The notes beneath the pieces are model-generated. The model was not told the DNA's origin. It worked only from the letters and a program-made list of their open reading frames with translations, and did not search any database. Made by a program: the position numbers and the translations under genes. From positions 204,104,001-204,168,000 of the forward strand of contig OZ024742.1 of assembly GCA_964016885.1 (NCBI GenBank): a DNA stretch of 64,000 bases. Reading direction: 5' to 3'. Source of the stretch: Eledone cirrhosa. Its lineage: Eukaryota. This document shows, piece after piece, positions 22,324 through 63,124 of this stretch; position 1 is the first letter of the stretch, and every line of letters begins with the position of its first letter.

Positions 22324-22363
<40 letters not shown>

Positions 22364-22370
<7 letters not shown>

Positions 22371-22548
22371 TAAAAAGGAAAAAGAAAAGGCTGAAAAATT
22401 TTTCCCAGTGAAAAATAGTTTAATTAGGAATAAGTATAACTTAGTAATAAGTATTAGTTAGTATTCAGACTATTTTTCACTGGGAAAAATTTGTCAGCAT
22501 TTTCTTTTCCTTTTTACTAATATATCACAACTCGTGTGTCACACCTCG

Positions 22549-22552
<4 letters not shown>
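22364..22552. repeat. Fold-back element in (TA)n, ~55-bp inverted arms; same family as 30078-30348; probable PLE 3'-end remnant
   Basis: 22364-22419 is the reverse complement of 22469-22523 with a few mismatches; shares arms and the CACAACTCGTGTGTCACACCTC tail with the 30.1-kb copy. Confidence 0.8.
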
Positions 22553-22587
<35 letters not shown>

Positions 22588-28240: not shown

Positions 28241-29684
28241 TAATAATAATAACGACAACAACAATAATAATATACATATTCATATATATATACACACACA
28301 CGCACGCACATAAGCATATCTACACACACACACACACACACACGATAGCAACTAACAGTGCTGCGATCGAATGTGGCTTTTTAGCCCAGCCAATGATCTA
28401 AAATGTCTTGCACAGAGTCGGCAACCAAAACACTTACTGGGAATAGTCGGCTGTGGTTGGAGTTCATGTACTTTTGCATGTCGCTTGAGTCCTCCTGCTG
28501 ATTTACATTCTCTACCACATCTTTGGCAAGCATGATGAGTAGCATCTCCAACAGCAGCCTGGTAGTCAACCACTGGTCTTACTTTATAACTGCGAAGATG
28601 ACTTTCGAGTCCAGCTTTGCTTAGGCAGAGTCTCGCACAGACGCTGCATGTGAGAACCATAGGAGGACCCTCGCCGTCTGGAAGTGCAACAGCAATGCCC
28701 TTCCTCACGTCCCGCTTTACTTTCTCGTGTGCGATTCGAGATGCCTCAAAGGCAACTTTTCCCTCATATACAGTCTTTCTCCATTTATTACGATCAGCAG
28801 CAATATTTTCCCATGTATCAGCAGAGATGTTAGCGTCTTTCAGAGAGGCCTTCAAGGAATCCTTATACCTCTTTTTTGGTTTATGTGGCGGTCGTTTTCC
28901 TTTAACCAACTCTCCATAGAAGAGTTGTTTTGGTATTCTAGAATCCTTCATCCTGGCAAGGTGACCACTCCAACGGAGTCGCTGCTTAAGCACAAGAGCT
29001 TCCATACTGTCACACATAGAGCTTTCCAAAATCTCGACATCATTGATGTGGTCCCTCCAGTGAACGCCATGGATCCGTCTGAGACACATCTGATGGAAAC
29101 GCTCCAATTGCTTAAGGTGGCGTCGATATGTGACCCAGGTCTCGCAGGCATAAAGAAGACAAGAGAGCACACATGCCCTGTACACCTTTACCTTTGTCCT
29201 CCTGCATATGCCTCGCCGACCCCAGAGTCGCCTTTCTAGCTTTCCGAAAGCATCACTTGCTTTCCTAATCCTATGTGAGATTTCACTGTCAAGGTTGCCG
29301 TATCGATTGACAGTGCTTCCCAGGTAGACAAACTGATCAACCACTCCAAGTCGTTTGCCATACACATAGATGTTTGTTCAGTGTACTGCTTACCAGGGGC
29401 AGGTTGGTACATGACGGTTTTCTTGATACTGACAGTCAAACCCAGGGCAGTGCCATCGTCAGAAAATACATTCAAAATGTGCTGCATATCACTCTCTGTG
29501 TGCGCTACAAGATCGCAATCATCTGCATACAAGAGGTCTCTTATGACTGATGTAAATACTTTTGTCTTCGCAGCAAAGTGCCTGATGTTAAATATGCTGC
29601 CTGAGGTTCGATATCGGATGTAAACACCATGCTCGCAATTCCTGAATGCAATACAGAAAACCATTGCAAAGTATATGGCAAACA
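27901..29684 (-). mobile_element. 5'-truncated RTE LINE, same family as 34321-38637, with (ATGT)n tail
   Basis: ORFs 28352-29365 and 29236-29684 are near-identical to the RT C-terminus (LLYADD, FVYLGS, RLRWSGH) and zinc fingers of the full copy. Confidence 0.95.
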
Positions 29685-30077: not shown

Positions 30078-30339
30078 TTAAAAGAATAGAGGTGTAACAC
30101 ACAAGTTATGATATATTGGTAAACGGAAAAGAAAATGCTGACAAATTGTTCACAGTGAAAAATAGTTTAATTAAGAATAAGTGAGAATTAGTAATATTGA
30201 AAAGCATTAGAAATGCGCAACCGGTAAAACTTAAAACCAAAACTGAATACTAACCAATACTATTACTAATTCTCACTTATTCCTAATTAAACTATTTTTC
30301 ATGTGAACAATTTGTCAGCATTTTTTTCTTTTCCGTTTA

Positions 30340-30348
<9 letters not shown>
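30078..30348. repeat. Fold-back element in (TA)n, ~86-bp arms, loop holding a degenerate U3:A8 hammerhead
   Basis: 30111-30196 is inverted at 30261-30348; loop reads TTGAAAA GCAT TAGAA ATGC GCAA CCGGTA. Confidence 0.8.
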
Positions 30349-32274: not shown

Positions 32275-32314
<40 letters not shown>

Positions 32315-32369
32315 GTGAGGTTTTTTTTACAAAATGAAAAATAACGGAGGTGTCCTACACGAGTGAAAG

Positions 32370-32659
32370 TATAAAGAAAAAGAGATGAAATCGAAAATGC
32401 AACTGAAGTCTTATTTTTTTTTTAAATATATATATTTATTTGGTTCCTTTACCGGTTTCGCAGTTCTTCTGCTTTTCAAAAGGTGAGTTGAGATGGAGGG
32501 TCTGTGGTTTTTCTGTGAGAAAAACCACAGACCCTCCATCTCAACTCACCTTTTGAAAAGCAGAAGAACTGCGAAACCGGTAAAGGAACCAAATAAATAT
32601 ATATATTTTTTAAAAAAATAAGACTTCAGTTGCATTTTCGATTTCATCTCTTTTTCTTT

Positions 32660-32662
<3 letters not shown>
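32370..32662. repeat. Near-perfect ~290-bp palindrome (3-nt spacer centred at 32516), each arm carrying a hammerhead motif
   Basis: Arms are reverse complements around TTTTTCT-GTG-AGAAAAA. Confidence 0.93.
32549..32586 (+). ncRNA. Minimal type I hammerhead ribozyme, U3:A8 variant (mirror copy 32446-32483 on minus)
   Basis: CCTT-TTGAAAA-GCAG aagaa CTGC-GAAA-CCGG-TA-AAGG: stem I CCTT/AAGG, stem II GCAG/CTGC, palindromic stem III ACCGGT, GUA triplet. Confidence 0.72.
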
Positions 32663-34320: not shown

Positions 34321-37300
34321 ATTGCGCGGGGACATAGAAATAATCGGGCTGGATGCCCGATCGCGCAGTTAAACCACTGGGAGTGAAGAACCCCTAGCCC
34401 TTGTCAGGGCATTCTTCTAGGAGAAGGCATCTCAGGAAACTGGGTTAACTCCGACATAAAACCTGCGGGTCAGTAGTTACCGATGATGTTGATCTTTTCT
34501 TCTTTTCGGGTTATAGCTACTGTCGCTCAGAGAGTGGGATTGGCTCAGTGCACAGTCTTTCCTCACTTTAAAAATATTCGTCACGCACAGGCATTGCACG
34601 AGTGCATTAATAATTATTAATAGTGTACTATTATTATTATTATTATTACTATTATTATTACTTTTTTTTTTTTTTTTTTTTTCCAATTCAATGATGTTCC
34701 AGAACAATATAAAAGAGATAATTGGCAATTTAGGTTCTGGAACAAAAAAGATCATTGGCAATAAGGGCAGGGACCCCAGGTTATCACAGCCTGGGCCCGC
34801 TCGTCATCGTGCCATTGTAATAGAGCCAAACAAGGCATTTAGTCTTGGCTGCTGGAACGTACGGATGCTGCTTGACAGGGATTCATTGGGGCGTCCTGAA
34901 CGAAGGACCGCTCTTGTTGCAAAGGAGATTCAACGTTACGATCTTGACATCGTGGCTTTATCTGAGACGAGGCTAGCTGGAGATGGTCATCTTACGGAAT
35001 TTTGTGGAGAATATACATTCTTCTGGAAAGGAAGAGATGAAGGAACCAGAAGAGAGGCTGGGGTAGGATTTGCTGTTAAGACTGTGCTTGTGAACAAATT
35101 AAAAGAATTCCCAGTAGGGATTAGTGAGCGTCTTATGTCCATGAGAGTTCCGCTGGACAAGGGAAGATATGCTACCCTGGTGAGTGTGTATGCTCCAGCT
35201 ATGAGTTCTGTCGATGAGGAAAAGGTGTCCTTTTACCATGACTTGAAAGGTGTTTTAAGAAATATCCCTCAGGCAGACAAAGTCATCGTGCTTGGTGACT
35301 TTAATGCTAGAGTGGGTAGGGATTTTAACACATGGAATGTAATCGGAAGGCATGGGGTGGGAAAGTGTAACAGCAATGGTATGCTCCTGCTGCAGATGTG
35401 TGAGGAGCTGGATCTGTGTGTTACCAACACCATGTTCCAACAAAAGAACAAATTCAAGACCACATGGATGCATCCTGCATCTAAGGAATGGCATCTTTTG
35501 GACTACGTCCTAGTCAGGATGCGTGACAGACAGGATGTGCAGTGTGTTCGTGTTCTTCGTGGAGCTGAGTGCTGGACGGACCACCGCCTGGTACGCGCAA
35601 AAGTGAAACTAATCACTAAACGTGAAATCCGGGCTCCTGGTGTTGCCCTGCCCAAAAGATTGAATGCTGCTCGTCTTAAGGATAAAAATGTGAAGAGGAC
35701 ATTGGAAGAAGAGATGCAGGCTGCAGATCTTGGTGAGGATTGGCCGACCCTTAAAAAGTCGGTTTATGATGTAGGCAGGCGTGTTTTGGGATTGGCGCAG
35801 AGGAAACATCAGGACTGGTTTGATGAGAATGATGTATATATAGAAGACTTGTTGGCTGACAAGAGGCGTGCTCTGTCACGCTACTTGACGGCAAAACCAC
35901 AGGAGAGGAATACGTTGCATGAGGAACTCAGGGATGTAAAATCACGTGTTAGGCAGAGTCTTTCTCAGATGAAGGATCAGTGGTGGAGTGAGAAGGCTGG
36001 TGAGATACAAACTGCGTCTGATTCCAATAACACAAAGCTGTTGTACAGTCTCTTGCGTGAGGTTTATGGACCGTCTTCTTCTCTGGTGACACCGCTTCGC
36101 AGCAAGGATGGCAAAGAACTTCTTCGTGACTCACAAGGAATTCTACGAAGGTGGCGAGAGCACTTTGACGATCTTTTGAATCAGCCGTCTGTCGTCAGTG
36201 AAGATTTGCTCAATCTCATTCCAGAAAGTCCTGTGAAAGTAGCTCTCGCAGAACCTCCGACGCTTGTGGAGGTTGCAGTGGCTATTTCGAAGCTGAACAG
36301 TGGAAGATCTCCAGTTATGGATAGCATACATGCTGAGCTCCTACAATATGGTGGTGAGAGACTCCTGCAACATCTTCACTCTTTGTTTGGCAGGATATGG
36401 GCTAATGAATCCGTACCTGAGGACTGGAGAGATGCAGTAATGGTGGTATTGTACAAGGGAAAGGGTAACAGGAACGATTGTGGGAACTACAGAGGTATAT
36501 CATTGCTTTCTGTCGTAGGGAAAGTTTTATGTAGGGTGCTTCTGGACCGTCTGCTGACACACATTGCAGATTGTGTTCTTCCTGAAAGTCAATCTGGTTT
36601 TCGTGCTGGACGCGGCACTACTAATATGATCTTCTCAGCTAGACAGCTCCAGGAGAAGTGCATGGAACAAGGCTTGGATCTGTATCAGGTTTTTGTCGAT
36701 CTTACAAAAGCTTTCGATACTGTTAACAGAGATGCATTATGGAAGGTTCTCCAGAAACTTGGTTGCCCTCATAAGTTCCTTGCTTTAGTTAGGTCTTTCC
36801 ATGACGACATGAAGGCTTGGGTTAATGTCGGGGGTAACATGTCGGAGCATATCTCAGTAAAAAATGGAGTGAAACAGGGGGATATTCCAGCACCGACCCT
36901 GTTTGCCATATACTTTGCAATGGTTTTCTGTATTGCATTCAGGAATTGCGAGCATGGTGTTTACATCCGATATCGAACCTCAGGCAGCATATTTAACATC
37001 AGGCGCTTTGCTGCGAAGACAAAAGTATTTACATCAATCATAAGAGACCTCTTGTATGCAGATGATTGCGATCTTGTAGCGCACACAGAGAGTGATATGC
37101 AGCACATTTTGAATACATTTTCTGACGCTTGCACTGCCCTAGGTCTGACTGTCAGTCTCAAGAAAACCGTCGTCATGTACCAACCTGCCCCTGGTAAGCA
37201 GTACACTGAACCAAACATCTATGTGTATGGCAAACGACTTGGAGTGGTTGATCAGTTTGTCTACCTGGGAAGCACTGTCAATCGATACAGCAACCTTGAC

Positions 37301-38261
37301 AGTGAAATCTCACTTAGGATTAGGAAAGCAAGTGATGCTTTCGGAAAGCTAGAAAGGCGACTCTGGGGTCGGCGAGATATATGCAGGAGGACAAAGGTAA
37401 AGGTGTACAGGGCATGTGTGCTCTCTTGTCTTCTTTGTGCCTGCGAGACCTGGGTCACATATCGACACCACCTTAAGCAATTGGAGCGTTTCCATCAGAT
37501 GTGTCTCAGACGGATCCATGGCGTTCACTGGAGGGACCACATCAGTGATGTCGAGATTTTGGAAAGCTCTATGTGTGACAGTATAGAAGCTCTTGTGCTT
37601 AAGCAACGATTCCGTTGGAGTGGTCACCTTGCCAGGATGAAGGATTCTAGAATACCAAAACAACTCTTTTATGGAGAGTTGGTTAAAGGAAAACGACCGC
37701 CACATAAACCAAAAAAGAGGTATAAGGATTCCTTGAAAGTCTCTCTGAAAGACGCTAACATCTCTGCTGATACATGAGAGAATATTGCTGCTGATCGTAA
37801 TAAATGGAGAAAGACTGTATATGAGGGAAAAGTTGCCTTTGAGGCATCTCGAATCGCATACGAGAAAGTAAAGCGGGATGTGAGGAAGGGCATTGCTGTT
37901 GCACTTCCAGACGGCGAGGGTCCTCCAATGGTGCTGACATGCAGCGTATGTGCAAGACTCTGCCTAAGCAAAGCTGGACTCGAAAGTCATCTTTGCAGTC
38001 ATAAAGTAAGACCAGTGGTTGACTACCAGGCTGCTGTTGGAGATGCTATTCATCATGCTTGCCAAACATGTGGTAGAGAATGTAAATCAGCAGGAGGGCT
38101 CAAGCAACATGCAAACGTACACGAACTCCAACCACAGCCGACTATTCCCAGTGAATGTTTTGGTTGCCGACTCTGTGCAAGACATTTTAGATCATTGGCT
38201 GGGCTAAAAAGCCACATTCGATCGCAGCGCTGTTAGTTGCTATCGTGTGTGTGTGTGTGTA

Positions 38262-41982: not shown

Positions 41983-42046
41983 TTTTTCATTCTGATGATT
42001 GAAAGCAAATTTTTTTGCTTTTAAGAAACCACTGGTAAATGAAAAA
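41983..42046 (+). ncRNA. Canonical type I hammerhead ribozyme
   Basis: Stem I TTTTTCATT/AATGAAAAA, CTGATGA (41992-41998), 11-bp stem II TTGAAAGCAAA/TTTGCTTTTAA, GAAA (42025-42028), stem III ACCA-C-TGGT, GUA triplet ending at 42037. Confidence 0.85.
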
Positions 42047-44649
42047 TTGCCTTATGTTGTTTATTACATAACTATTAAGCTCTGTAACCTACATAGAGCA
42101 CTCTTTTTTCCTGGACTTTTCCGACGGAATTACTTCACATATATATATTTATATATATATATTTATTTCGTTTCTGAATTTGTTTAGAAAGATTCTTTAT
42201 CTGAAAACGTGTGTTGAAACCGATATTGTTATACTTTGGGAGGGTCATGTTGTCAATAAGAAACACACGCACCAGTTGCTTTCACTCCAATTTATTATAA
42301 ATTAAATTTATAAATTTCCGGTTGGTTGGTTGGTTCCATAACCGGACGGTTGTTCATATATTGTCAATGTTCTTTCGTCACATATTCTGTGACCTCTTCA
42401 GTGACTGGGGATTCTTTTCTTTGTTTTGTGCCTCTCCTTTGTTCTGTCCTACGCCATCTTGTTTTTGTTGTGTGTTGTGTGCTTAGTTTGCGCATGTGTT
42501 ACATCCGGGTGTCTGTGTGTGTTTTTATTTGTTTATTTATTTGTTTATATACATGTTACTGGTTGATTGTTTGTTCTATGTGTGTGTGTGTTTTCATTTT
42601 GTCCTTAATTGTAAGTTGTGGTGTTGCTATTCCATTCATGTTTTCTATTTAATTTTGGTTTGAATTCATTTATGTTTATTGCCTCTGTGATTTGCCTAAA
42701 CATTGCATCTTTTCTGTGTGTAGATTCTATTTTTATTTCTATGTTCTCTAATTTGCCCTTATGTTCTATTTTAGCATGTTGGTAGAGGACAGATGATTCT
42801 TTTTTATCTTGAAGTTCTCACCTGTGGTCATTTAACCGTTCTCCTAAACTGTCTGACATATGTACACTATAATCTTATCGTTACACAGTATTCTTATCCT
42901 TCAGAACATCTTATGCTATATACTACATTTCTAGTTTTACAGTTAATATGGAGGGCTTAGTTTACAGCTACTCTATATACTGTGATTTATCTCTCTTGTT
43001 GTAACCAGAGAACTGCATACGGTGGATGAAGTGTTGTATGTGTCTCTCTAGTTCTTTGGGATTGCACATGCGGGTCACGTTTCTCATCACCCGTACCAAA
43101 TCCGCAATCAGTATTTTGATTTTGGTGTGATCCGAAACAGCTGAGTTTCGGTGGATCAGATATTTGGAAGCATGGGTTTGGCATAATGGGAATGGAGGAT
43201 TTGTTTTTTGTTATTAATGGTTTCTAACCAGAGCTCTGTGTCTAGTGCAGGTAATCGATGGCTGGGGCGTTTGCTTGGGTAGTCTATAGTAACTCTAATA
43301 CTCTGGTGGATAGAGTTAGCTATTTGCTGGATGCTTTCCATGGTGTTTTTCTCCAATTCCTGACTGTTGTCTACTGGGGGTGTTTTACTACGATGTTTAT
43401 ATCATCAACGTAGCGGGAGTACATTATCAGGGTTAAGGGGTCTTCTAATTGTTCTTTAAGTTTAAGTTTAAGTCTACTGTCCCACCATACCATGAATAAG
43501 TTAGCTATGTCACCTGCAATGCTAACACCAATGGCTGCTCCCTCCTCTTGGGCAAATGTTTTTCCATTAAATTTGAACATATGTTCCTTAAGGGTTAATT
43601 TTATATTGGCCCCCACCGCATGTGCAATCATTTTCTTTAGTTCATCATGGTTTTCGGGGTCCGTATGTCTCTGGTCCATCCGTTCCATCTTTCTGTGTGG
43701 GTTTTCTTGGCCATTGAGTTTTCTGGTTACAATCAGAGAGGTAAAATCAGAGTATATAGACGAGCCAGAACCAAATGGGAAAAAATGGTAAATAATGATA
43801 CAAATGGGACCTGCCCCTTGTATATGAGCAAATTTTGGAATAGAATAGAAATAACTAGGAATAAGGTTAATAGAATAAACTCATGGTATCATAGCAATAA
43901 ATACCAGAGTGTAATGTTCATCAATACAAACCCTAGAGGTGAATTAGCTTACAAATTTAGAAGGGCCCTAGGTAAACTGAAACTTAATATTAAGATAGTA
44001 GAAAGACCAGGTACCTCCATAAAAACACTTATTAGCAATACATACCCTTTTCAAAGACCTACCTGTATAGATAAAAAATGCATAATCTGTAAACTAAGCC
44101 CCCATATTAACTGTAAAACTAGAAATGTAGTATATAGCATAAGATGTACTGAAGGACAATGTAAAGATAAGAATATATTGTATATAGGTGAGACAGCTCG
44201 TAGTATAGGAGAACGGTTAAATGAACACTGGCAAGAACTTCAAGATAAAAAAAGAATCATCAATACTCCACCAACATGCTAAAATAGAACATAAGGGCAA
44301 ATTAGAGAACATAGAAATAAAAATAGAATCTACACACAGAAAAGACGCAATGTTTAGACAAATCACAGAGACAATAAACATAAATGAACTCCAACCAAAA
44401 TTAAATAGAAAACATGAATGGAATAGCAACATCACAATTACAATTAAGGACAAAATGAAAACACACACGCACACACATAGAACAAACAAGCAACCAGTAA
44501 CATGTAAATAAACAAATAAATAAACAAATAATAACACACACAGACACCCGGATGTAACACATGCGCAAACTAAGCACACAACACACACAAAAACAAGATG
44601 GCGTAGGACAGAACAAAGGAGAGGCACAAAACAAAGAAAAGAATCCCCA

Positions 44650-44692
44650 GTCACTGAAGAGGTCACAGAATGTGTGACGAAATAACTTTGAC
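44650..44692 (+). ncRNA. Hammerhead motif in the PLE pLTR (other copies 48661-48703 plus, 42363-42405 minus); stem III degenerate
   Basis: GTCA-CTGAAGA-G-GTCACA gaatg TGTGAC-GAAA-TAACTT-TGAC. Confidence 0.68.
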
Positions 44693-44935: not shown

Positions 44936-47900
44936 ATGTTCTGTTGTCTACGAAAAACAATAACATCTCGACAACTACATTTCATAAAAGAATGTGCCTC
45001 ATCCCGAGTTTACATCAACACCATCAACCCCGATGTAAGAAGATTACAACTTACCAAAAAGCAAGCAGATAGGCTAAAACGAACACTAATTCTAAACATA
45101 GAAAAGATCTACAGAGAATTAAGTCATCAAGAAAAACATAAGCGTAACCTAATACAAGAAATAATTAAGATCACCACACCAAGAGAAAAATTAATATATA
45201 TAAACCTTATATGTCACGAAGAAAAGTACATCGTTCAGGAGTGCGAAAAACACTTTAATAAGAAATTAAAGTGGCTCAAACAGATGAAACTAAACTAAAA
45301 AACTTCAGAGAATAGAGATAAATATCCAGACAAGATTGATGGTATAAATATGGCCGACATCTCATTAACGGATGAATTCAACAACAACAACACAAATATA
45401 TACGGCAACACTACAGTCGGCTCTGATGAATTATCGATATTACAGCTACCACCTAAATATGCCACATATAATAAGGTAAATATGATAAAATGCTTGTCAG
45501 AAATAGAAAAATAATTTACAAAATTACGTTGGAGCCTCAAAAACAAAAACAAAAACAAAAGTAACAACATACGCACACACACACACACATACAACACACA
45601 TCCCAACAACAACAGACACACAGACACAAACAACGATAACAACAACACACACAACAATAACATACACGGAGACAGCAACAACAACAACAACACACATCAA
45701 CAACAACACACATCAACAACACACATCAACAGCACACATCAACAACAACAACAACACACACACATTCTATGCCTCTCACCACCACCACGATCTTAACAAA
45801 CACACAGACACAGAAAACAGGTAATGACAGTAACACAGAAGTAAGGGAAGGTAATGGGATTGAAAGGAGAAGGGAGACTATCGATACTGACAGAGAAAAT
45901 AACCAGGACGAACAAATTTAGAAAATAGAGTAGATAATAACAATGAGCTAGAGGAAAGAGACAGGAGTAATAATGAGAGACATAGAAACAACCATGAGGC
46001 TGTTGGTGGAATTAGAAATAGAAACAACACAACTAACAATAACAATAGCAATAGTACACATAAAGGAGCAGCCTGGAATTCTACTTTTTATAATCCTTCC
46101 GATATGTCCTTCTACCCACGACGAGTCCATGCCACGACTTTAGCTTTTAACAAACGCACGCAATTGCCGTCGCAGGTCGATGAACAAACAGAAGCACAAT
46201 TTAGTATAGCTAGATCTAGATTTAGAAATATTATAGAACAGTATAGCAAGAAGAAAAATAGAATGGAGGCCCAGCAACTGGGAGAAAAATCTGCAAATGG
46301 CTTGCGTAAGCTCATGCAGCGCTCGCGTAATGGAGAGATTGCATGCTTTCCAACAGACAAGTCTGGCAAAATGTCGGTTCACAGTCTGTCAAGCTACATC
46401 CAGGCAATGCAACCCCACATCACTAACACAAGAGATGTAACACCACAAGAGCATGATGATAGGGAGAAAACCCACAATGCCCATAAGATGATGTGGACAA
46501 ACATAATGCAGCCCAATAAAAGGACTGCCAACAACTTCCAGGCCTGGAACAATGACGTGCTAGCGTTGTATGGGCTTCGAAAAGACCATAAGACAAGCAG
46601 GGACCCTGTCACAGGACCACCAACACGGCCAGTCTATGGAGCTAACATTGCTAGTAACTACAGACTTTCCTACTTCCTCTCCCTGATCATACGCCCCATC
46701 ATTGAAATGTCCCCAGATATATGTGACAGCACGGAGGGCCTCCTCAGCGGAATCAACGAAAATAACCAATCTAGGGACCTAACAGACTGCATAATAGGTA
46801 GTATGGATGTTGTGTCCCTATATCCATCCATTGACGTGGATTTTGCTGTGGAGAAATGCGTAGAAATGATCAGTGAGAGCAATGTTGAATTCCGTGGGAT
46901 TGATACCAGTGAGCTGGGACTCCTACTTAAACTTACCTATAGTAAAGATTATCTAGATACATATGACCTTAGCAACCTGTGCCCTACAAGGCCAGCAAGA
47001 AGCTGACCACCCACCATTACCTCAATGGCCAAGAAAACCACACAGAAAGATGGAACGGGTGGACCAGAGCCATACGGACCCCCGAAAACCACGATGAACT
47101 AAAGAAAATTATTGCACATGCGGTGGGGGCCAGTATAAAACTAACCCTTAAGGAACATATGTTCAAATTTAATGGAAAAACATATGCCCAAGAGGAGGGA
47201 GCAGCCATTGGTGTTAGCATTGCAGGTGACATAGCTAACCTATTCATGGTATGGTGGGACAGTAAACTTAAACTTAAACTTAAAGAACAATTAGAAGACA
47301 GCAACCTCTTAACCCTGATAATGTACTCCCGCTACGTTGATGATATAAACATCGTAGTAAAACACCCCCACTAGAGAACAGTCAGGAATTACAGAAAAAC
47401 ACCATGGAAAGCATCCAGCAAATAGCTAACTCCATCCACCAGAGTATTAGAGTTACTATAGACTACCCAAGCAAACACCCCAGCCATTGATTACCTGCAC
47501 TAGATACAGAGCTCTGGTTAGAAACCATTAATAACAAATAACAAATCCTCCATGCCAATTATGCCAAACCCATGACTTCCAAATATCTGATCCACAGAAA
47601 CTCAGCTGTTTCGGATCACACCAAAATCAACATATTGATTGCGGATTTGGTACGGGTGATGAGAAACGTGTCCTGCATGTGCAACCCCAAAGAACTAGAG
47701 AGACATATACAACACTTCATCCACCGTATGCAGTTCTCTGGTTACAATCAGAGACATAAAATCAGAGTATATAGAGGAGCCAGAACCAAATGGGAAAAAA
47801 TGGTAAATAATGATACAAATGGGACCTTCCCCAAGTATAGGATCAAATTTTGGAATAGAATAGAAATAACTAGGAATAAGGTGAATAGAATAAACTCATG

Positions 47901-48440
47901 GTATGATAGCAATAAATATCAGAGTGTAATATTCATTAATACAACCCCTAGAGGTGAATTAGCTTACAAATTTAGAAGGGCCCTCGATAAACTTAAACTT
48001 AATATTAAGAGAGTAGAAAGACCAGGTACCTCCATAAAAACACTTATTAGCAATACATACCCTTTTCAAAGACCTCCCTGTATAGATAAGAAATGCATAA
48101 TCTGTAAACTAAGCCCCAATATTAACTGTAAAACTAGAAATGTAGTATATAGCATAAGAAGTACTGAAGGACAATGTAGAGATAAGAATATAGTGTACAT
48201 AGGTGAGACAGCTCGTAGTATAGGAACGGTTAAATGAACACTGGCGAGAACTTCAAGATAAAAAAGAATCATCAATACTCCACCAACATGCTAAAATAGA
48301 ACATAAGGGCAAATTAGAGAACATAAAAATAAAAATAGAATCTGCACACAGAAAAGACGCAATGTTTAGACAAATCAGAGGCAATAAACATAAATGAACT
48401 CCAACCAAAATTAAATAGAAAACATGAATGGAATAGCAAC
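44936..48440 (+). pseudogene. PLE polyprotein (N-terminal domain, RT, GIY-YIG), frameshifted
   Basis: PTDKSGK, GSMDVVSLYPSI, QEEGAAIGVSIAGDIANLFM, YSRYVDDI, NVVYSI...YIGETARSI across ORFs 46104-47006, 46979-47374 and 47572-48237. Confidence 0.88.
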
Positions 48441-49000: not shown

Positions 49001-49204
49001 GTATACCCCACACGGGTTGAGCGCTTCAAACAGTAGCGGACCTAAGACACTATGGAATCATTTGACTTTTTATTTAAATTTAATCTACACTACTCCGGAG
49101 TAACGAAACCAACCTGCGCACTTCGTCGAGTGCTCCAGCCTGCATATTGAGGTGTTGGTATACAATCAACATAAACTCAAAATCTATCTAGCTCCCACAC
49201 GGGG

Positions 49205-49845
49205 AATGTTTGATTCTTATAGAATTCTAGTAATAACCAGGAACTGATTATACAGAGCGGTTGCCGGTCAAGCAGAAATTTAAAATTAGAATTGGTGCTC
49301 TGAAATAGCGATATATATGAATGTATATATAGTGTATTTTGCAATACACTGTATGCTTAATTAAAAGTATTTCGAAGACCTTACGCTATTGTTTTAGAGT
49401 AGTGACAGTCTCACTTACTTTAAATTTTCAGCGAACAGGGGAGATAAAACTGACATAGCTCTGTTTCGTACTTTTTGGTACTTATTAAAGCTAAGTACTC
49501 CACCTGTTTGCTGAAAAAATACACTATATATACATTCATATATATATATATCGGTATTTCAGAGCACCAATTCTAATTTTCAATTTCTGCTTGAGCGGCA
49601 ACCGGTCTGTATAATCAGTTCCTGATTATTATTAGAATTCTATAAGAATCAAACATTCATGATTTTCAGCAAACAGGTGGAGTACTTAGCTTTGATAAGT
49701 ACCAAAAAGTACGAAACAGAGCTCTGTCAGATTTATCTCCCCTGTTTGCTGAAAATTTAAAGTAAGTGAGACTGTCACTACTCTAAAACAATAGCGTAAG
49801 GTCTTCGAAATACTTTTAATTAAGCATACAGTGTATTCCAAAATA

Positions 49846-49893
<48 letters not shown>

Positions 49894-49961
49894 TATTTTG
49901 GAATACACTGTATGCTTAATTAAAAGTATTTCGAAGACCTTACGCTATTGTTTTAGAGTAG
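49205..49961. repeat. Nested inverted duplication X-Y-X'-Y' plus partial Y copies abutting (TA)n
   Basis: 49205-49340 inverted at ~49519-49658; 49330-49517 inverted at ~49662-49852; Y end recurs at 49889-49961 and ~50184-50214. Confidence 0.85.
49688..49732 (+). ncRNA. Type I hammerhead ribozyme, U3:A8 variant with GUC site (mutated mirror copy 49448-49492 on minus)
   Basis: AGCT-TTGATAA-GTAC caaaaa GTAC-GAA-ACAGAGCTCTGT-C-AGAT; stem III is a 12-nt palindrome; the mirror copy has AGTT, giving a 4-bp stem I. Confidence 0.75.
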
Positions 49962-49973
49962 TATATATATATA

Positions 49974-51581: not shown

Positions 51582-54500
51582 TATATACTACTAAAACTCT
51601 GATCTTGCGTGCTTGCTTGTCTGTTATGTAATACACCCAAAAGGGCGCATAATGGGTAAATACTTTGAAAGCAAGTTGCCTCTGAAATGGAAATACAAAT
51701 TGAATAAAAGAAGTTTCGCGAAAATCTGACCCCGGGTTCCCGAGATTCGCGGGTTTTGGGGGTACCTTCGAAAAATAGCCACAACTGTGCATACTGGGAA
51801 AATACCTCGAAATTAACATAACCCGCAAACTTCGTAAATAGCCAAAATATTGCATAATGAGAAAATACTCTGAATAAAACAAGTTTGGTGTAAATCGCAC
51901 ATGGACAATATTTTCAATTTTCCAAAAATAGCAAGGAATTCATTTAAATTCAATTTATCTTATTTTATAATGAATATCGAAAGAAATAATCCGTTTGTTT
52001 TTTGGTTGTCCATTGTGTAGGTAAGAGAGACAGAGAGGGGGTGAGAGAGAGAAGGAAAGAGAGAGGGGTGATAGAGAGAAAGAGAGGGAGTGAGGGGATG
52101 AGAGAGAGAGAGAGGGTGTGACAGATAGGGAAAGAGACAGCGTCCTTAACTTTTATTTATTTTAACTCTCCGCCTATCCATAACGTTATTTCTTTCTCTC
52201 TCTTTCACTGTTATACTGCCACCGTGTGTATCTGTATGTGTATGTGTGCCATTTCATGTATTTATGTACTTAGAGACATGTGTGTGTGTGTGTGTATGTG
52301 CGTGTAACAGTACTTAAGTTAGAGACATATATATTTATATATATTTGTGTGTGTGTATGTAGAATACCTTCGTAAATAGCCAAAACGGTGCATAATGTAA
52401 AAATAGCCATGTAAGTGATATAACCCTGAAATGGGGATAAAACAGGTTTTACGTAAATCGACATAAAAATATTTCTCGATTGATGAAAATAGTTAAATAA
52501 TTATTAAAAAAAATTTTTTCAGTGATTTCTCAGGGAATATGATTTCAAAACTAAAAGTTGTTTGTACTTCAAGTATCTATATTCGAGCTTTCTCTAAACA
52601 GACGATATTTTAATTATCAGAAAAGCATTAAGTGAATATCACTGAAAAATACCAGTAGTGTTAAACAGTAGGTGTTTATATTTTTGCTTTTGTTAAAAAG
52701 AATATTTCAATTATTTAGAAATATTTTAAAGTGAATTTGATTTCACAAATAGCTTTATTCATGTTTTTAAAATTATTTTCAGGTGAATACGATGGAAAAA
52801 ATATTTCTTGGCATATTTAAAAAATATTCTTAAGTGAAAATGACTTTAAAAAATACAAATTATTTGTACACTAAGTATATATATTTCAGCTTTCTTTAAA
52901 CAGAATATTTTAATTATTAATAAGTATTTTTTAAGTGAATATGATTTGAAAAATACGAGTTGTTTAAACAGACAATATTTTCATTATTTAGAAATATTTC
53001 TAAATGATGATTTAAAAGAATATTTGTTGAGGTAATAGAAATTTTTTCTAAGGTGAATACGATTTTCTATTCTTAAATAATGTCTCGACGAGGAAGAAAG
53101 AAAACATCTGGTTGGTCTATCGATAGTGGAAAGAAAGCACGGAGAGCTAAGAAAGAACGCTAAGGAGAGCCGAAGAAGGTGAGCAAGATAGTAGTCAACG
53201 CCAACAAGATCGGGACAGGCATGCGAATAGAAGGATCGATGAGACTGATAAAGCAAGGGCTGCGAGTCTGGCGGAAGAGAGGGAAAGAGACAGAAGCAGG
53301 AGAGATCATGAATCGGATGGTCGGAGAGTTGAGCGTCAGGCGGAACAGAGGGAAAGAGACAGAAGAAGGAGAGATCATGAATCGGACGCTCGGAGAACTG
53401 AACGTCTTTGCCAACAAACAATTAGGGATAGAGCAAGGACAGTTCAAAGACGTGCTGATCTTGGACAGATGAATAAGATCTGTGTCTGTTATCATGCAAT
53501 GCTTTTTCATGGGGAAACTGCTTATTTTTGCTGTATGAATGGAAAAGTCAGGTTTGGGAATCTGCAGCCTTTACCCCAGGAACTTCACAGTTTATTTAGT
53601 ACTGATCAACCTAGGGCAAACGAGTTCATGAAGAACCTCAGACAATACAACTGCCTGTTCCAAATGACATCTTTTGGGGCCGAAGAAGTTCGTTTCTCAA
53701 GGAGTGGATGGAATCCTTCTATCGTTATTCAAAGGTCAAATTCACCATTACATCGGTTCCTTAACCCCTAATCCCAGCGAACAACCCCAATTTCTTCAAA
53801 TTTACTTCTTGGATCCTCAGGATACTGATGATTTGAGGATCAGGATACTCCATAACGATGGTATTCAGCGCGACATAGTTGAATTATTGGAAATAATACT
53901 CAGACAATATAACCCTTACGTTGCTTCATTTCGAATGGCAGAAGAACAAATTAAAAATATTCACGAAGCTTCGATTATTATTCCAGCAATGGAACATGAG
54001 AGAAGATTCAATGCACAAACTGCAAACGAAGTTGCCGTTACTATACAAAACAGCACCGAACTTCAAGCAAAAGCACGGCACGTTGTGATGAAAGAAAAAG
54101 GCGGACAATTGCAAATAATCTCAGAGTCCCATCGGTCCTATGACAGTTTGCAGTATGTTCTATTTTTTCCTTTTGGCGATGACGGATGGCATCATGAGCT
54201 GTTAATGAGCAACAACAAGAAGTTGACGCCAATGCGCTACTATGCCTATCGAATAATGAACCATGAGAATGAATTCAACCAACTTCTCAGAGGCGGTCGT
54301 TTATTTCAGCAATATTTGGTTGACATGGCTGCGAAGATTGAAGGAGATAGACTGCAATACATCCGAATGAATCAAACATCATTGCGATCTACAACATACA
54401 AGGGCATTACTGATGCATTGATGATGATGACGTTTGAATGATGATGACGATTTTCGCAATATTGGTAGGCGAATCATACTCTCTTCCACATTTGTCGGTG

Positions 54501-57500
54501 GACCGAGATATATGATGGAGCGATGCCAGGATGCCATGATGTACATACGGAAGTACGGCAATCCTTCGTTCTTCATCACAATGACATGCAATCCAAACTG
54601 GCCTGAAATCCGGCAAAACCTATTCCTGAATCAGAAGCCACACGACAGGCCAGATTTAATTGCCAGAGTATTTGACCTGAAGCGGAAACTGTTAAGAAAG
54701 TATTTTACTGGAGTAGATGGCCTATTTGGCTAGTGCATTGCTTACATGCTGACAGTCGAATATCAAAAGCGAGGTCTTCCTCATGTGCACTGTTTGCTAT
54801 GGCTCAATGAAGCCTCCAAGCCCAGACCGCAGGAATATGATAAATTTGTTCAAGCCGAAATACCAGATCCAAACAAAGGTCCAGAGGGTCATGAATTGGT
54901 GCTGAAGCACATGATCCACGGTCCGAATAGCTCTAACAATTCGCCGTGTTGCAAAGATGGAACGTGCAGTAAGCGGTCTCCTAAGCCTTTCAAAGAATAT
55001 ACATTGTGTGGAGAGGACGCTTATCCTGTGTACAGAAGACGGTCTCCAGGAATGGGAGGATTTGAGGGCCACCAAGAAGGAAGGGGAAGCTGAAATATAA
55101 CTTCGAAATGGGTGGTTCCCTACAATATGAAACTATTAAAACTGTTCAACTGCCACCTAAACGTAGAGATGTGCTCTTCCGTGAAATCGATCAAATACGT
55201 TATCAAATATACCATGAAGGGCAATGATCAGGCAATGTTTGGAGTGAACAGGGAAGATGAGATAATACAGTATTTAACAGGAAGATATATCGGTCCTTCA
55301 GAAGCTGTTGCCTTGGTACTTGGATTTCCAATTCATGAGTGAGAGCCGGCCGTATTTCGCCTTCAAGTTCATCTACCTGAGGAAAATCAAATCTTCTTTC
55401 GGGTCAATGCTGCTGCTAAAGTAAACAATAACATGGCTAAGACGACTCTGACTGAGTTCATGTATCTTTGCGATTGCGATCCGTTTGCAAAAACATTGTA
55501 TTATGCCGATGTCCCAAAGTTTTACACTTGGAGTAATAAGAGATGGGAAAGGAGAAAGGTGGGGGAAAACAGTTGAGCAGTATCCAAGGATTTTTGAGGC
55601 GAACGTTTTCGGACGAGTATACACTGTTTCTCCACGAAGTGGTGACCTGTATTATTTAAGACTCCTTCTGCATCACGTCAAAGGGCCAGTATCCTTCAAC
55701 TCTTTGAAAATGTGTGATGGAGAACTCCTGCCATTATTCAAAGACGTCTGCAGAGAGAAAGGTTTGCTTCAATCGGATGATCATTGGCAGCAGACTCTGG
55801 AAGATGCTGAGCGAACAAGGCTTCCCAAAGCCACGAGAGATCTATTCATCGTGCTCCTCACAAATACGGAAATTGACAATTCCAGTGCTTTATGGGTTCG
55901 ATTTAAGCATTCGCTGTCTGAGGATTACCTTCAAATATAAAAAAAGGGCTTCCAGAAACTCTAACCTTTTGATTAGCGAGAGACATTATGATCAATGTCT
56001 TCTGTATTTTGAAGACAAACTTAACGACCTGGGCAAAAGTCTTAGTGACTTTAACTTGCCAAGGCCAAATAATATTGTTGCTAATCAGGATATTGGCAAT
56101 TTGGAGTTATTGCATGAATTGCAATACAGCAGAGAAGAGCAGCGACGATTTGTAGAAGAGACGGAGTCTCTATTGAATAGTGAACAAAAACACGTGTATG
56201 ACTTCGTTTGTAACAGTTTAGAGACGAACACATCTGCATTGATTTTCATTGACGCTCCAGGTGGAACAGGAAAGACATTCCTGATTAACTTAATTCTTTC
56301 AAAAGTCAGGGAAAACGGTGACGTGGCTATTGCTGTTGCATCATCTGGCATTGCCGCGGCACTTATGCCCGGTGGAAGAACAGCGCATTCTAGGTTCAAA
56401 ATACCGATAGTAGTGAAAGAAAATGGCCTGTGCAACATTGATAAAAACTCAAAGACGGCAAACGTCTTCTAGCATACAAGGCTGATTGTTTGGGATGAGT
56501 GTCCTATGATTCGGAGGGAAAGCTTCGAAGCAGTTGACCTCACTCTGCGTGACATATGCGACAACAATGAGGCATTCGGTGGAATTTTGACAATTTGCTG
56601 TGGCAATTTTCGTCAGCTTCTTCCCGGTAGTGAAAAGGAGAAATGAAGCGGACGTGGAAAACGCCTGCATTAAAAAATCCTACTTATGGTGAAGCTTCAA
56701 AAGATTTCAGTTGAAGACAAACATGCGATCGGGTGGGGGAACAGGAGACTATTCACAGTTCCTATTGGATATTGGAGAAGATAAAAAAAAAACTGAAAAT
56801 GAGGAAATTATTTTGTCAAAAGAAATGGTTCTCCAAGCAACAACTATGGAAGAATGTATTGATTTCATCTACCTCTCATTCGACAATCCAGCTGAAGTGT
56901 TTTCGAACAATTGCATCTTAGTACTTCTCAATGAAATGATGAGAAGCATCAATTCCACCTCTATCAGATGCTTCCCTGGAACCATAAAAGGGTATTGATC
57001 CTATAATTCTGTGAGTGATGTGCCAATTCCACTCATTTCCCGACTGAATTCCTTGATTCGATTGAACTATCAGGACTGCCACCACATAACCTGGAATTGA
57101 AAAAAGGATCGCCAATAATTCTTATGAGAAACTTGAATCCTCCAAGGCTTTGTAATGGAACGCGCATGATCGTGGGAGAACTGCACGACAATCTTATAGT
57201 AGCAAGAATCAACACTGCTGCTTTCAGAAATGAGATAGTTATGATACCTAGAATAAGAATTAATCTATCCGAAGGTGAGGATATCACTTTGCAGCGAAGC
57301 CAATTCCCAGTTCAATCGTGCTTCGCTATGACTATTCATAAAGCACAAGGACAAACTATGGAAAACGTCTTGGTTTATCTGGAACGACCTGTATTCCAAC
57401 ACGGTCAACTATATGTAGCCTTTAGCCGCGGAAAACGAAAAGAAAATGTCAGAGTGTTTCTGAAGGATACCCAGTCAACTAAGAATGTTGTCATCAAAAG

Positions 57501-58310
57501 CATTCTTTAAACAAACTGTAACAGCGTAAATCTGAGAAAATGTTGATTTCGACGTCAGAAAATGAAAGGAAAAGGAAAAACTAAGACAAGTAAAATTAAT
57601 TTCTTTCAAATTTTTGTAAATAAAACCAGCTTTTCATTAACATTGCAACTTTTTAAGCAGAAAAATCTTTCAGAACAAACAGTCAAGCATCCATAAAGAT
57701 ATAGAAAAAAGAATTTTGAAGTGGAGTGATTGGATAGCTATTAGTGAAAAATGATTTTATATTTTCTTTGTGCAAATACTTGTGAATAATACAGTGAAAA
57801 GACAAGTTTCGCGTAAATCGGACCACGGTTTCCCGAGTTACGCGGGTTTTTTCGGGTACCTTTATAAATAACCAAATCAGCGCATAATGGGAAAATTCTT
57901 TCAAAGTAAGGTACCATTGAAATGTGAATACAAACGCAGATATTGGTTGTGAGAGAGAGAGAGAGAGAGGGGGAGAGAGCTGATGGTGTTGTTGAATGAA
58001 ATTATGACAGGTGACTTCAAAGAATTGAATACAGCATTACTGTATCTACCTTGAATTTGGTGACTGAATATTAAGTTATATGTATCTTATAACTTGTGTA
58101 TGTGTAACCAGTGTATATAGGCCACAGACACCCACACACACAAACATATATATATATATATATACACGTACATATACACACCCACATACACGTATATATA
58201 TATATATTGGCTTTCCAATGTCATTTTACATTATATACATTTTGTGTATATTTTAATTATTTAAAAATTATTTTTAAGTGAACATGACCCAACGGGTCAT
58301 GGGTGGTCTA

Positions 58311-58963: not shown

Positions 58964-59164
58964 GTATATATATGTATATGTATATATATATATATGTATA
59001 TATATACATATATATATATATATATACATACATATATATATATACATATATATATATAGTAATAATAATAAATTTCAAGACTAAAATCCAAAGAGGGCTC
59101 GATAAGGATAAATATATATCAAATATATAAGAACCGTAGAGCACTCTACTGTCTTATATTCATC

Positions 59165-61270
59165 ATGCAGAAACAACATCTGAATATTTCTACAAAGAAC
59201 ATACCCGTACCAAGCAGGAAAACATACCTAAAACTCCTGATACAGAAAACAGACGCGTTCATTAAATGGTTGCGTTGGCGTGCCTTTTATTTCGATAACC
59301 CGCGAAAAGCAGATAACAAACAGGATAAATTTGGAATTAAAACCTATAATAAACCCCCGTGTAACCCAGCATTGCTACCCTTCGAAAATGATGTCTTGGA
59401 ACTCATTCGGAGTATCAAATTTCGGAATAGGAGCAATTCCTTCCAGCAAGACCTGAATAATAGAATTCGTTCTATTAAGGATTCTAATGCCGTGCACGTC
59501 CATTCCGACAAAACTGGCAACCTATATCAAGTGGAGCGCAGTAGTTACCATCAACTACTACATAATGCTGTAACTAAGGATTACCGTAAAACTAATCGGT
59601 GCGTCATCAATGAAATCAACGATGCTGGGTTTAAAATCACATCTGATCTCAACATCCTGGACCGGACCGAACCTCTGGACAGGACCGAACCTCTGGACCC
59701 TATTTCTCCCCACTTTACCCTGAAGGATCACAAATCCAATTTTCAGAACAACCCCTCTATTCGGTTTATTAACCCTACGAAGTCCGATTTAGGTAGACTT
59801 AGTAAAACGATTCTTGATAGAATTATACCTGAAATTAGAAGTTTGGCCCATCTTGCCCTGTGGAACAATTCTTTCGCGGTGATTGATTGGTTCAACGGCA
59901 TATGTAACAAGGAACATTGCCGTTTTATCCAATTCGACATCAACAATTACTACTCCTCCATCACTTTACTACTTTTCCTTAGAGCTATCAATTTCGCTAA
60001 AACACTCACAGTGGTTAAGGATTTCGAAGTTGATGTCATCCTCAATGCCCGAAAGACGGTGATTAATTTCGACGACTCTATTTGGATTAAAAAATCCAAT
60101 AGTACCCCATTCGACGTGAGTATGGGCGCCAGCGATTCTGCGGAGGTTACTGATCTTATCGGCCTTTTCCTTCTTTTCTCTATCAAGGACGAATTCCCCA
60201 ACGCGGGCGGTGGTTTGTACCGTGACGATTGTCTTTTGACCATGACTAAGTGCGGACCTCGTGCTTGCGACAGGTTCAGAAAAGAACTCACAGCCTTCTT
60301 TAAAGGCTTCAACCTCTCTATACAGGTTGAGGCCAATCTCTCGGTCGTTAATTACCTTGACGTTACCCTCAATTTATTGAATGGGTTGTATTACCCGTAT
60401 AGAAAGCCGAATGATACGCTTAATTACATAAGTAAGCATTCCAACCATCCTGCCAGCATAACCAAGAACCTGGTCAGAAACGTTTCGTTGAGGCTTTCCC
60501 GTCTTTCTACCAACGAGCGTATTTTTAACGACCATTCCACTTATTACAATGAAGCTCTTGCTCGAAGTGGATTTATCGATAAGGTAGCATATACTGAGTA
60601 CGAAAATAGACCTAGAAGAAATAGATCCCGTCGCATTATATGGTATAACCCACCAGATAATATGGAGGTGGCCACACCATTAGCTAAGATCTTTCTTTCC
60701 CTTATTACGAAGCATTTTCCCCCTACACATAAATATAGTAACATTTTTAATAGAAATACTATTAAAATTTCTTACTCTACGACTCCTAACCTTGCACATA
60801 ACATCACAGCTTCAAATTTAGCTAAACTACCTAGCCGTAGGAACACGTGCAACCCTGTAGTTAGTACTAACTGTAATTGTAGGAATCGGGTTGATTGCCC
60901 CCTATCCGGGAAATGCCTCTCTAGTAACATTGTCTACAAATGTAAGGTTGTAACACCCACGTCCCGTAGGGCCTACATAGGGTTAACCGCCAATAGATTC
61001 AAGCAGCGTCTTTACACGCATACCCATTCTTTTCGTTACCCTCTAAGAAGGAATATAACGTCACTTTCAGCTTATATCTGGAGTCTAAAAGACAACCACA
61101 CCCAATATAAGTTACACTGGGAGATCCTAACTAGCGCTAGATCGTATAACGGAAATAAAAGACCATTTGACCTCTGCGCCGCTGAGGCCCTGGAAATACT
61201 CTACGCCACAGACCACATCTTAAACAAAAAATCTGAGGCAATTTCGGCTTGTAAACATAAATTGCACTAA
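59165..61270 (+). CDS. Penelope-like element polyprotein: RT, Cys-rich linker and C-terminal GIY-YIG endonuclease (701 aa, no internal stop)
   Basis: SDKTGNLY, QFDINNYYSSI, FDVSMGASD, LYRDD, NYLDVTLNL, CNCRNRVDCPLSGKC, IVYKC...YIGLT...FKQR, CKH. Confidence 0.92.
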   Translation: MQKQHLNISTKNIPVPSRKTYLKLLIQKTDAFIKWLRWRAFYFDNPRKADNKQDKFGIKTYNKPPCNPALLPFENDVLELIRSIKFRNRSNSFQQDLNNRIRSIKDSNAVHVHSDKTGNLYQVERSSYHQLLHNAVTKDYRKTNRCVINEINDAGFKITSDLNILDRTEPLDRTEPLDPISPHFTLKDHKSNFQNNPSIRFINPTKSDLGRLSKTILDRIIPEIRSLAHLALWNNSFAVIDWFNGICNKEHCRFIQFDINNYYSSITLLLFLRAINFAKTLTVVKDFEVDVILNARKTVINFDDSIWIKKSNSTPFDVSMGASDSAEVTDLIGLFLLFSIKDEFPNAGGGLYRDDCLLTMTKCGPRACDRFRKELTAFFKGFNLSIQVEANLSVVNYLDVTLNLLNGLYYPYRKPNDTLNYISKHSNHPASITKNLVRNVSLRLSRLSTNERIFNDHSTYYNEALARSGFIDKVAYTEYENRPRRNRSRRIIWYNPPDNMEVATPLAKIFLSLITKHFPPTHKYSNIFNRNTIKISYSTTPNLAHNITASNLAKLPSRRNTCNPVVSTNCNCRNRVDCPLSGKCLSSNIVYKCKVVTPTSRRAYIGLTANRFKQRLYTHTHSFRYPLRRNITSLSAYIWSLKDNHTQYKLHWEILTSARSYNGNKRPFDLCAAEALEILYATDHILNKKSEAISACKHKLH

Positions 61271-63124
61271 ACTTTCCTGTATTACAGCCCCACGTTATAC
61301 CCTAACGGATAGTACGATCTATACGTGGATATTTTACGTCTTGATGTGGGAGCTAAGTATATGTTTTGTTTATACCATTACTTATTTGCATAGGTAAGTA
61401 TATATTACCCGTATGTTTCGTGAAGGTACGTATACCTTCTCGTACGTATATTTGTTTGTATATGTTATGGCGTATAATTTATTTTTTTTTTATTTTTTTT
61501 TTTTTATTCTGGTACATATGGTTTGGCTATGTGTATACGGGAGTTTTGCGTCTGTGTGATTATGCAGGTTCGTATGTATGTAGGGTGTGTGTATATGTGT
61601 ACTTCATGTTTTGGTTGACTTAAGTCTCCGAACATTCGTGCATTTACATGTAGGTATGTGTGTGCACTTGTTATATACGTATTTATTTATTTATATACGT
61701 TTATATAATTATTTATTTATTTGTATACACGCATACACACACACACACATATTTATATGTGCGTGGTTTTGTATACCTATAGTAATTGTTTTGCTTATGC
61801 TTGTGTATGTACGTATTTGTTTGCGTGTATGTATTTATTTATTTCTATTACTTCTGTATTGTATTTATTTACTTTGTTCTTAACTCTGTAGCGGAGATTC
61901 ATTCGGTCTCCTAGTTAGAATTTTAGTCTACGACTTCTGCTATACCATTTACGTGGTTTTGTCTTTGCGTGCTATTGTTCTCTACGCTCCACATATGACG
62001 TATTATCTTCGTTTTTTTCGTTCATTGCCAGAGAACGTCTCTATGAACCACGTAAGAGAACATTAGTCTACGACCTCTTTTATACCATAAACGTGGTTTT
62101 GTCTTTGCGCGTAATTGTTTTTCACCGCTCCTATCTGTTAGAACACGAAAAGTGTGAAACACAGAATGTTCACTTTTCGTGTTCTAACATATATGCCTAG
62201 CTTCTTAAAAAATTTTTCGGGGATAGCCGTGGTGGTGGTGATCGTATGTCATTGGCTAATTTTCAACCAATCAGAGTACCTCTCTCTATATCTCTTCCAC
62301 TGTTACTTACGCCTGTTTCTCTCTATCTGTTCCGTCTCTATATATATCTCTTACTCTTTCGCTTTGCACTCCTCCCCTTCAATACCATCTCTCCCCCTCT
62401 CTATATATTTGTTACTCTATCGCTGCACGCTCCTCTCCTTCAATATATCAATTACACACGCTTTACACTCCTTTATCCCCAGCGCCCCTATATATACACC
62501 CCCCTCTCCCGCATCTATATTTTAATGTACCGTTGCACCGTGAATATATGTGTCTATATATATATACATATATATTGTATATACACATTCATGTATGTGT
62601 ATACACATTCATGTATGTATATACACTGGTTTTATGTGTGTATTGTAAATTTGTACTGTTAAAACACGAAACTAACATTCGATTGACACTTTGATTACCT
62701 GTACAGGCAATAGTTATTAGAATGCTGTTGAAGTGTGTATATATTTTTGGGGGACATCCTGTATATACACACATTATATATAATACAATAAACAGATAAA
62801 TACACACATATATATATGAGCTTATTTAATTATAAATATTGTGAATTTTTAACTCAGTTCAATTATATATATAAATGGCTTCTACAGGACTAGAACTGTT
62901 TCATTCGAAAGAAATCATCATAATATTGAGAGGGGGGACTAGATAAAATATTTCAAATCAAATGTGTATAAGTTATAAGTTAAAATGTATAAATAGAGAC
63001 GATAGTGGAGGTATATCTGTTTAGTGGAACAGTAGACGATAGAATTAAATACAGACGGTAATCTCCCTTTAATGAAACAGCAGACGATAGAATTAAGGCA
63101 ATTTAAATTTTAAGCATTTGCATT

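Follow-up and report, generated by a model that had tools for sequence, protein, structure and literature searches.

Natural hammerheads in which the 3:8 pair is U:A have been in print since 2011 (Perreault et al. 2011, PMC3088659), and that account includes ribozymes with a covarying 3:8 pair that were active in vitro. About 1,300 U3-A8 motifs were subsequently described in Penelope elements, those of Schistosoma Cercyon (Cervera and De la Pena 2014, PMC4209133), where the minimal hammerheads are portrayed as cleaving poorly, even as dimers. In a deep mutational scan of one hammerhead, the G:C swap alone rescued the 3:8 pair and other double mutants had low activity (PMC9901934). Two further systems are close. 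Animal non-LTR retrozymes, as introduced in PMC7229834 and by Li et al. 2026 (10.64898/2026.07.22.740005), are tandem 150-450-bp units with one type I hammerhead and a GC content under 50%, thought to derive from Penelope-like elements. The Neptune/Nematis EN+ elements combine a reverse transcriptase (RT), a CX2-5CxxC linker and, at the C-terminus, a GIY-YIG domain, and occur as partial tandems and inverted 5'-truncated copies with a microsatellite bias (Craig et al. 2021, PMC8557442).

Here we describe three U3:A8 hammerhead-type motifs from Eledone cirrhosa, named F1 (site 49692), F2 (32553) and F3 (30197) together with their families; positions are those of the window, the whole 64,000-nt stretch of DNA that was analysed. 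The compensatory 3:8 swap is the same as in the Perreault et al. variants; the text of PMC3088659 gives C6, U15.1-A16.1 and insertions and no C13 (its Figure 5 and supplementary Figures S6-S7 lay outside the comparison). F2 and F3 share with Cercyon, as the latter is described in PMC4209133, the type I topology in pseudo-LTRs, the short palindromic stem III, U3-A8, the prevalence of single truncated copies and the opposite-strand pairs. In contrast, there are about 26,000 matches here, stem II has 4 bp and no extra base after A9 (7-8 bp and one extra base in Cercyon), and one family carries C13. F1 resembles the animal retrozymes as characterized in the two accounts above, but U3:A8 predominates in it beside a sister subfamily with C3:G8; its stem III is a palindrome of 12 nt, its distal stem I spans 15 bp, and its insertions, at (TA)n, are of fold-back form. 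F2 and F3 are likened to Neptune/Nematis by architecture and share the insertion features listed for these elements; they differ from that description in that their protein is split between two frames that overlap, with U UUU UUA common to both families. More generally, the fold-back structure, the (TA)n targets and the end variation match Penelope-like insertions as published. The U3:A8 swap, which the earlier note had implied to be new, is thus already known, and what is unusual is a fixed U3/A8/C13 core in a young family that numbers about 11,000 copies. Our literature search for cephalopods turned up no account of motifs of this kind.

Three motifs in one window and their abundance

The host genome has 3.0 Gb. 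Within the window there are many (TA)n runs and LINE pieces, together with a Helitron and several Penelope-like fragments. All three motifs that the earlier note had placed at 49692, 32553 and 30197 are present, on the plus strand. The first reads TTGATAA, with stem II GTAC/GTAC, GAAA, the palindrome ACAGAGCTCTGT and GTC at 49726-49728; the second has stem I CCTT/AAGG, TTGAAAA, stem II GCAG/CTGC, GAAA, ACCGGT and A17 at 32582; the third has TTGAAAA, stem II GCAT/ATGC, GCAA and ACCGGT. A strict hammerhead descriptor found three matches between 19001 and 64000, all U3:A8 (49692+, 32553+ and 32479-), and none in 100 local dinucleotide shuffles. Each motif lies inside a fold-back insertion adjoining (TA)n (Table 1), and the insertions at 32553 and 49692 hold inverted copies that the earlier note had missed, at 32479(-) and at 49488(-), the latter with G5 changed to A.

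Table 1. Hammerhead-type motifs and their insertions in the window
Feature	Positions	Strand	Remarks
F1 type I hammerhead motif	49688..49732	+	U3:A8 core 49692-49698; cleavage predicted after C49728; mismatch in stem I (49731)
Long distal stem I around F1 hammerhead	49663..49755	+	fold z-score -7.7; both-sided change in 10/15 pairs across subfamilies
F1 retrozyme-like fold-back insertion	49204..49962	.	inverted ~315-nt unit, forward ~320-nt unit, (TA)n run, inverted tail fragment
Second, inverted F1 hammerhead copy	49423..49517	-	core start 49488; G5 to A; stem III mismatch
F2 minimal hammerhead motif	32549..32586	+	U3:A8 core 32553-32559; stem III from the palindrome ACCGGU; cleavage predicted after A32582
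Identical inverted F2 hammerhead copy	32446..32483	-	core start 32479
F2 fold-back stub	32309..32660	.	flanked by (TA)n runs; two 3' ends of a Penelope-like pseudo-LTR, joined tail to tail
F3 minimal hammerhead motif, U3:A8 and C13	30197..30226	+	inversion junction in place of 5' stem I arm
F3 fold-back stub, Penelope-like pseudo-LTR	30078..30342	.	between (TA)n runs

Rfam gave a sub-threshold HH9 match at 49693-49728 (E 0.0068, 19.9 of 52 bits) and no hammerhead at the F2 site 32553; over the whole window, hammerheads were absent among the 150 of 195 matches listed. All three window copies are probably inert, given the stem I faults at 49692 and 30197 and the expected burial of the motifs by their inverted twins at 32553 and 49692. 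At 49692 the window copy departs from the family at 49731 (A instead of C), and two contig sets likewise showed variation within the family, with C at this position. Under constraints, the window copy was not predicted to form the three-way junction that an intact family copy forms; at 30197 the 5' arm of stem I was lost at the inversion junction. A read-through transcript at 32553 or 49692 would fold onto the inverted twin. The questions raised here therefore concern the families rather than these copies.

Both F1 and F2 have the core C3-A9, G12-A14, A15.1-U16.1 and H17 with a Watson-Crick 3:8 pair, which is U3:A8. Genome-wide, the earlier note's expectation of high abundance was borne out by 1,475 matches to an F1 pattern open at positions 3 and 8, 11,746 to the exact F2 motif open only at 3, 7 and 8, and 11,349 to an F3 pattern with GCAA (C13), with no match in the reversed control of each. 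A looser pattern spanning F2 and F3 had 26,281 matches, with U3:A8 in every one of the first 100 on the list. The descriptor, applied to 52 stretches at round coordinates (520 kb), returned 14 matches and none in the reversed control: eight C3:G8 from several families, five U3:A8 that were all of F2 type, and one A:A. On this sample, U3:A8 is abundant by copy and the canonical families are more numerous. A count of canonical C3:G8 motifs with ACCGGT was set aside as not clean, having fewer matches (107) than its reversed control (158).

The window holds further elements. A canonical CUGAUGA hammerhead, absent from the earlier note, lies at 41983-42046 (+), with its core at 41992, a 9-bp stem I and an 11-bp stem II. 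Minimal C3:G8 hammerhead-like motifs stand at 44654 (+) and 48665 (+), each 3' of a GIY-YIG frame (43641-44282 and 47542-48237); a copy in inverted orientation lies at 42401 (-). By eye, motifs resembling those of GIY-YIG and of a Penelope-like RT can be made out in a 732-aa frame at 59072-61270 (+), for which Pfam gave no match; a loose core search of 61200-62600 detected no hammerhead. Another F3 fold-back stub, truncated 3' of the hammerhead, occupies 22361-22571. We also noted a satellite of 51-bp units (about 370 copies, 6-18851), a broken Helitron with Rep and PIF1 helicase (53000-57510), and a near-intact LINE with a 1,086-aa APE-RT frame (34517-38236) and an inverted partial copy at 28282-29684. 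Elsewhere in the genome, a possible fourth U3:A8 motif, UUGACAA with a palindromic AUAUAU stem III, was seen in one copy within unrelated sequence (locus L018, position 1847, +).

F1, a tandem repeat resembling retrozymes

A DNA search with F1 yielded 2,384 candidates; identity was 97-100% across the 30 best full-length matches, a list headed by the copy in the window itself. Head-to-tail arrays have periods of 318 and 320 nt and contain 17.3 and 14.2 units. With a unit of 319 nt, a GC content of 0.34 and one hammerhead each, F1 falls within the range of the retrozymes. Its circular monomer is predicted to be stable and self-paired (-77.9 kcal/mol, z -6.0 against 100 mononucleotide shuffles). 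We found no autonomous partner element for F1.

Positions 3 and 8 shift jointly between F1 subfamilies, in line with the earlier note's idea of a paired change. Counted by eye, the first 100 of the 1,475 matches comprised 90 U3:A8, nine C3:G8, one U3:G8 and no C3:A8; the C3:G8 copies carry the same flanks as the U3:A8 copies and are thus sister subfamilies. In an alignment of 29 of the 75 distinct copies, hand-picked to span the subfamilies and leaving out most truncated and core-mutated copies, the 3:8 pair is UA in 18 rows and CG in 11. Both sides were altered in 16 of 28 pairs, a number reached by none of 500 shuffles, and these include all four stem II pairs as well as the distal stem I pairs of Table 1. 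The 3:8 covariation counts copies and is inflated by kinship; it may reflect one or two events per lineage, possibly a single switch.

The earlier note cited the view that Penelope hammerheads with a palindromic stem III act as dimers, a model that fits 32553 and 30197 (see below). At 49692, stem III can close on itself in a single molecule, with 4 bp and a loop of 4 nt, so that a dimer is not required, and no double-hammerhead dimer was predicted for F1. The fold of lowest predicted energy for F1 is not the hammerhead but an inactive alternative that is 2.9 kcal/mol more stable.

F2 and F3, sister families of Penelope-like elements

The earlier note regarded the three elements as unrelated. 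Instead, the 3' regions of F2 and F3 are 75% identical over 119 nt, making 32553 and 30197 members of homologous sister families. The suspected link of these two motifs to Penelope-like elements was upheld: PF00078 and PF01541 matched above their cut-offs in F2 and F3 elements, identifying RT and GIY-YIG, and the hammerhead motifs lie 3' of the GIY-YIG frame in the same orientation. RT and GIY-YIG accompany a motif in pseudo-LTR position at loci L213, L260 and L262 for F3 and L142, L185 and L225 for F2. At L213 the order is hammerhead-ORF-hammerhead, L260 and L262 are tandem copies, and L225 holds F2 coding frames. The proteins contain the linkers CDRPNCGIC and CGRSNCGTC, of the CX2-5CxxC type, and their C-terminal endonuclease ruled out an identity with Naiad. 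Distant pairs of F2 motifs at L091-L093 have no F2 frame between them, and a GIY-YIG piece at L092, with a TA run between it and the motif, was set aside.

Copies of both families have constant 3' ends, variable 5' ends and often an inverted copy at the 5' end, and both families show partial tandems, inverted 5'-truncated copies and (TA)n targets. A TA run lies within 400 nt downstream in 64 of 69 F2, 25 of 26 F3a and 47 of 48 F3b copies, counts that come from a TA-rich genome and have no background control. The protein is split over two overlapping frames (in F3, 455 and 784 aa from one stop to the next, the second at -1; L260, 6299-9948; L262; L225 for F2), rather than the single ORF that is canonical for EN+ elements. 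Where the frames overlap, both families have U UUU UUA (in seven of the eight F3 copies seen) despite a protein identity of about 50%, and this common heptamer suggests a programmed -1 frameshift. No strong structure was predicted 3' of it. Our literature search on Penelope and slippery frameshifts returned nothing relevant; the legend of Fig. 1 in PMC8557442 mentions a frameshifted ORF1 in some clade.

F2 carries a different base at position 3 in 101 copies and at position 8 in 47, as expected from point mutation after insertion. Two C3:G8 relatives with F2-like flanks were found (L171, L172). F2 stems I to III have 4, 4 and 3 bp, and the count of compensatory changes comes from F1 alone. Stem III is the palindrome ACCGGU in F2 and F3. 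The predicted F2 dimer is a double-hammerhead fold of -22.5 kcal/mol versus -15.0 kcal/mol for two monomers (7.5 lower); in it, U3 pairs with the cleavage-site A17, in competition with U3:A8.

F3 lacks A13 of the GAAA strand, and the earlier note took its GCAA for a sign of decay. C13 is, however, the fixed norm of the family. A tighter F3 pattern with a base other than C at 13 gave 118 matches, a mix of T, A and G, although this pattern and the GCAA pattern are unequal in tightness. In a flank tree covering 49 of 57 eligible rows, the C13 copies group as a single clade (support 100/100). Selection by protein instead of motif gave 29 loci, of which 27 held 34 copies in total; every copy is U3:A8 and C13, and 31 of the 34 share an unchanged 30-nt motif. 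An F3 search produced 18,937 candidates, and the 150 scored were all 99-100% identical, many of them in 784-aa open frames. F3 is therefore a young family with open reading frames and some 11,000 copies. Stem I of F3 has only three A-U pairs; a shifted register using the GAAA of loop II leaves no stem II and was ruled out by inspection. C13 also creates a second palindrome, UGCGCA, beside ACCGGU (for example at window 30214-30219), which could alter the pairing of two copies.

Function of the motifs and its implications

We consider it likely that the pseudo-LTRs of F2 and F3 and the F1 repeat of about 320 nt carry hammerhead-type U3:A8 motifs whose intact sources cut RNA slowly to unit length, the window stubs being probably inert. 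By analogy with PMC4209133 and PMC7229834, this cutting would be performed by paired hammerheads in F2 and F3 and by a single one in F1. A partial-tandem transcript of F2 or F3 might join two hammerheads via their ACCGGU palindromes and be cut after GUA; the RT and endonuclease of the element could then reinsert the cut RNA at (TA)n, and 5' truncation and inversion would give rise to fold-back stubs. In the F1 repeat, cleavage after GUC would release monomers, which would probably be circularised and then mobilised with borrowed Penelope proteins.

How well the sources cleave is expected to differ among the families. We think it probable that an F1 source copy would cleave detectably in vitro, consider the prospects of an F2 copy evenly balanced, and hold cleavage by an F3 copy with C13 to be unlikely. 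Pairing of C3 with G17 is the cause of the inhibition by G17, and the predicted U3-A17 pair of F2 resembles this inhibitory pair. G17 impairs minimal hammerheads according to a published abstract. High activity of F2 and F3 is disfavoured by this U3-A17 pairing, by the rescue with G:C alone in the mutational scan, by the weak cleavage reported for Penelope hammerheads and, in F3, by C13 together with the stem I of three A-U pairs.

The alternative with the best standing is that F2 and F3 motifs no longer cut and persist as relics for dimerisation, for binding of the element protein or through overlap with a promoter, or simply as passengers, leaving F1 as the sole working ribozyme. We regard this as possible, if not the expected outcome. 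The core change to C13, which is likely crippling, is fixed in 11,349 copies of a family in which many endonuclease domains are identical and frames of 784 aa are open. The weak stem I and the ability of U3 to pair with A17 point in the same direction. Moreover, Naiad elements are described as thriving without canonical hammerheads, and the authors propose that hammerheads may parasitise such elements. Against a relic stands the conservation of the core, stem II and palindrome relative to the flanks: F2 and F3 differ in 4 of 30 motif columns and 137 of 331 flank columns, and F3a and F3b in 0 of 30 (a one-base loop indel aside) and 56 of 394 (14%), contrasts that are suggestive only, with optimistic P values, as the copies were selected by the motif pattern. 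The unchanged motif in nearly all protein-selected F3 copies also argues against it, but a binding role might account for it too.

Alternatively, C13 might be tolerated or compensated in the U3:A8 background, making F3 a working hammerhead with three non-consensus core bases. This we find doubtful. C13 has survived at least two subfamily expansions, between which the flanks moved 14% apart and no other core or stem change occurred, and the T, A and G of the non-C13 copies are the mix that point mutation predicts. Yet substitutions of A13 cripple hammerhead cleavage. A13 also belongs to the published core consensus of the hammerhead, and our search for A13C with hammerhead, or for A13 mutagenesis, returned nothing relevant. 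Nor did we find a natural C13 hammerhead in the literature searched, a search that did not extend to the supplementary material of PMC3088659 and PMC4209133 or to the main variant survey (Lunse et al. 2017), in which C13 may figure. Less probable still is the more specific version in which F3, with U3, A8 and C13, works in a currently expanding family and the U3:A8 pair itself would make C13 tolerable. If true, the hammerhead core would have left its consensus by a natural epistatic path, here amplified 11,000-fold and missed by every CUGANGA-GAAA search.

Finally, a chance resemblance, with AT-rich self-complementary repeats imitating a hammerhead, is hardly credible: Rfam matches do stay below the gathering score and the F2 and F3 monomers fold no better than shuffles (z -0.5 and -0.6), but the empty shuffles and reversed controls and the compensatory changes of F1 effectively refute it; the pseudo-LTR position, which is as described in PMC4209133, and the C3:G8 sister copies with homologous flanks also speak against it.

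Searches limited to the consensus would overlook at least 27,000 motifs in the Eledone cirrhosa genome. This genome also offers natural matched pairs, namely C3:G8 and U3:A8 retrozyme subfamilies and A13 and C13 sister Penelope families. Given that the C13 family is young and very successful, it bears on a question raised in PMC8557442, whether Penelope-like elements need the hammerhead. Should C13 permit cleavage, the core consensus has been drawn too narrowly; should it not, an active family spreads with a dead yet conserved ribozyme.
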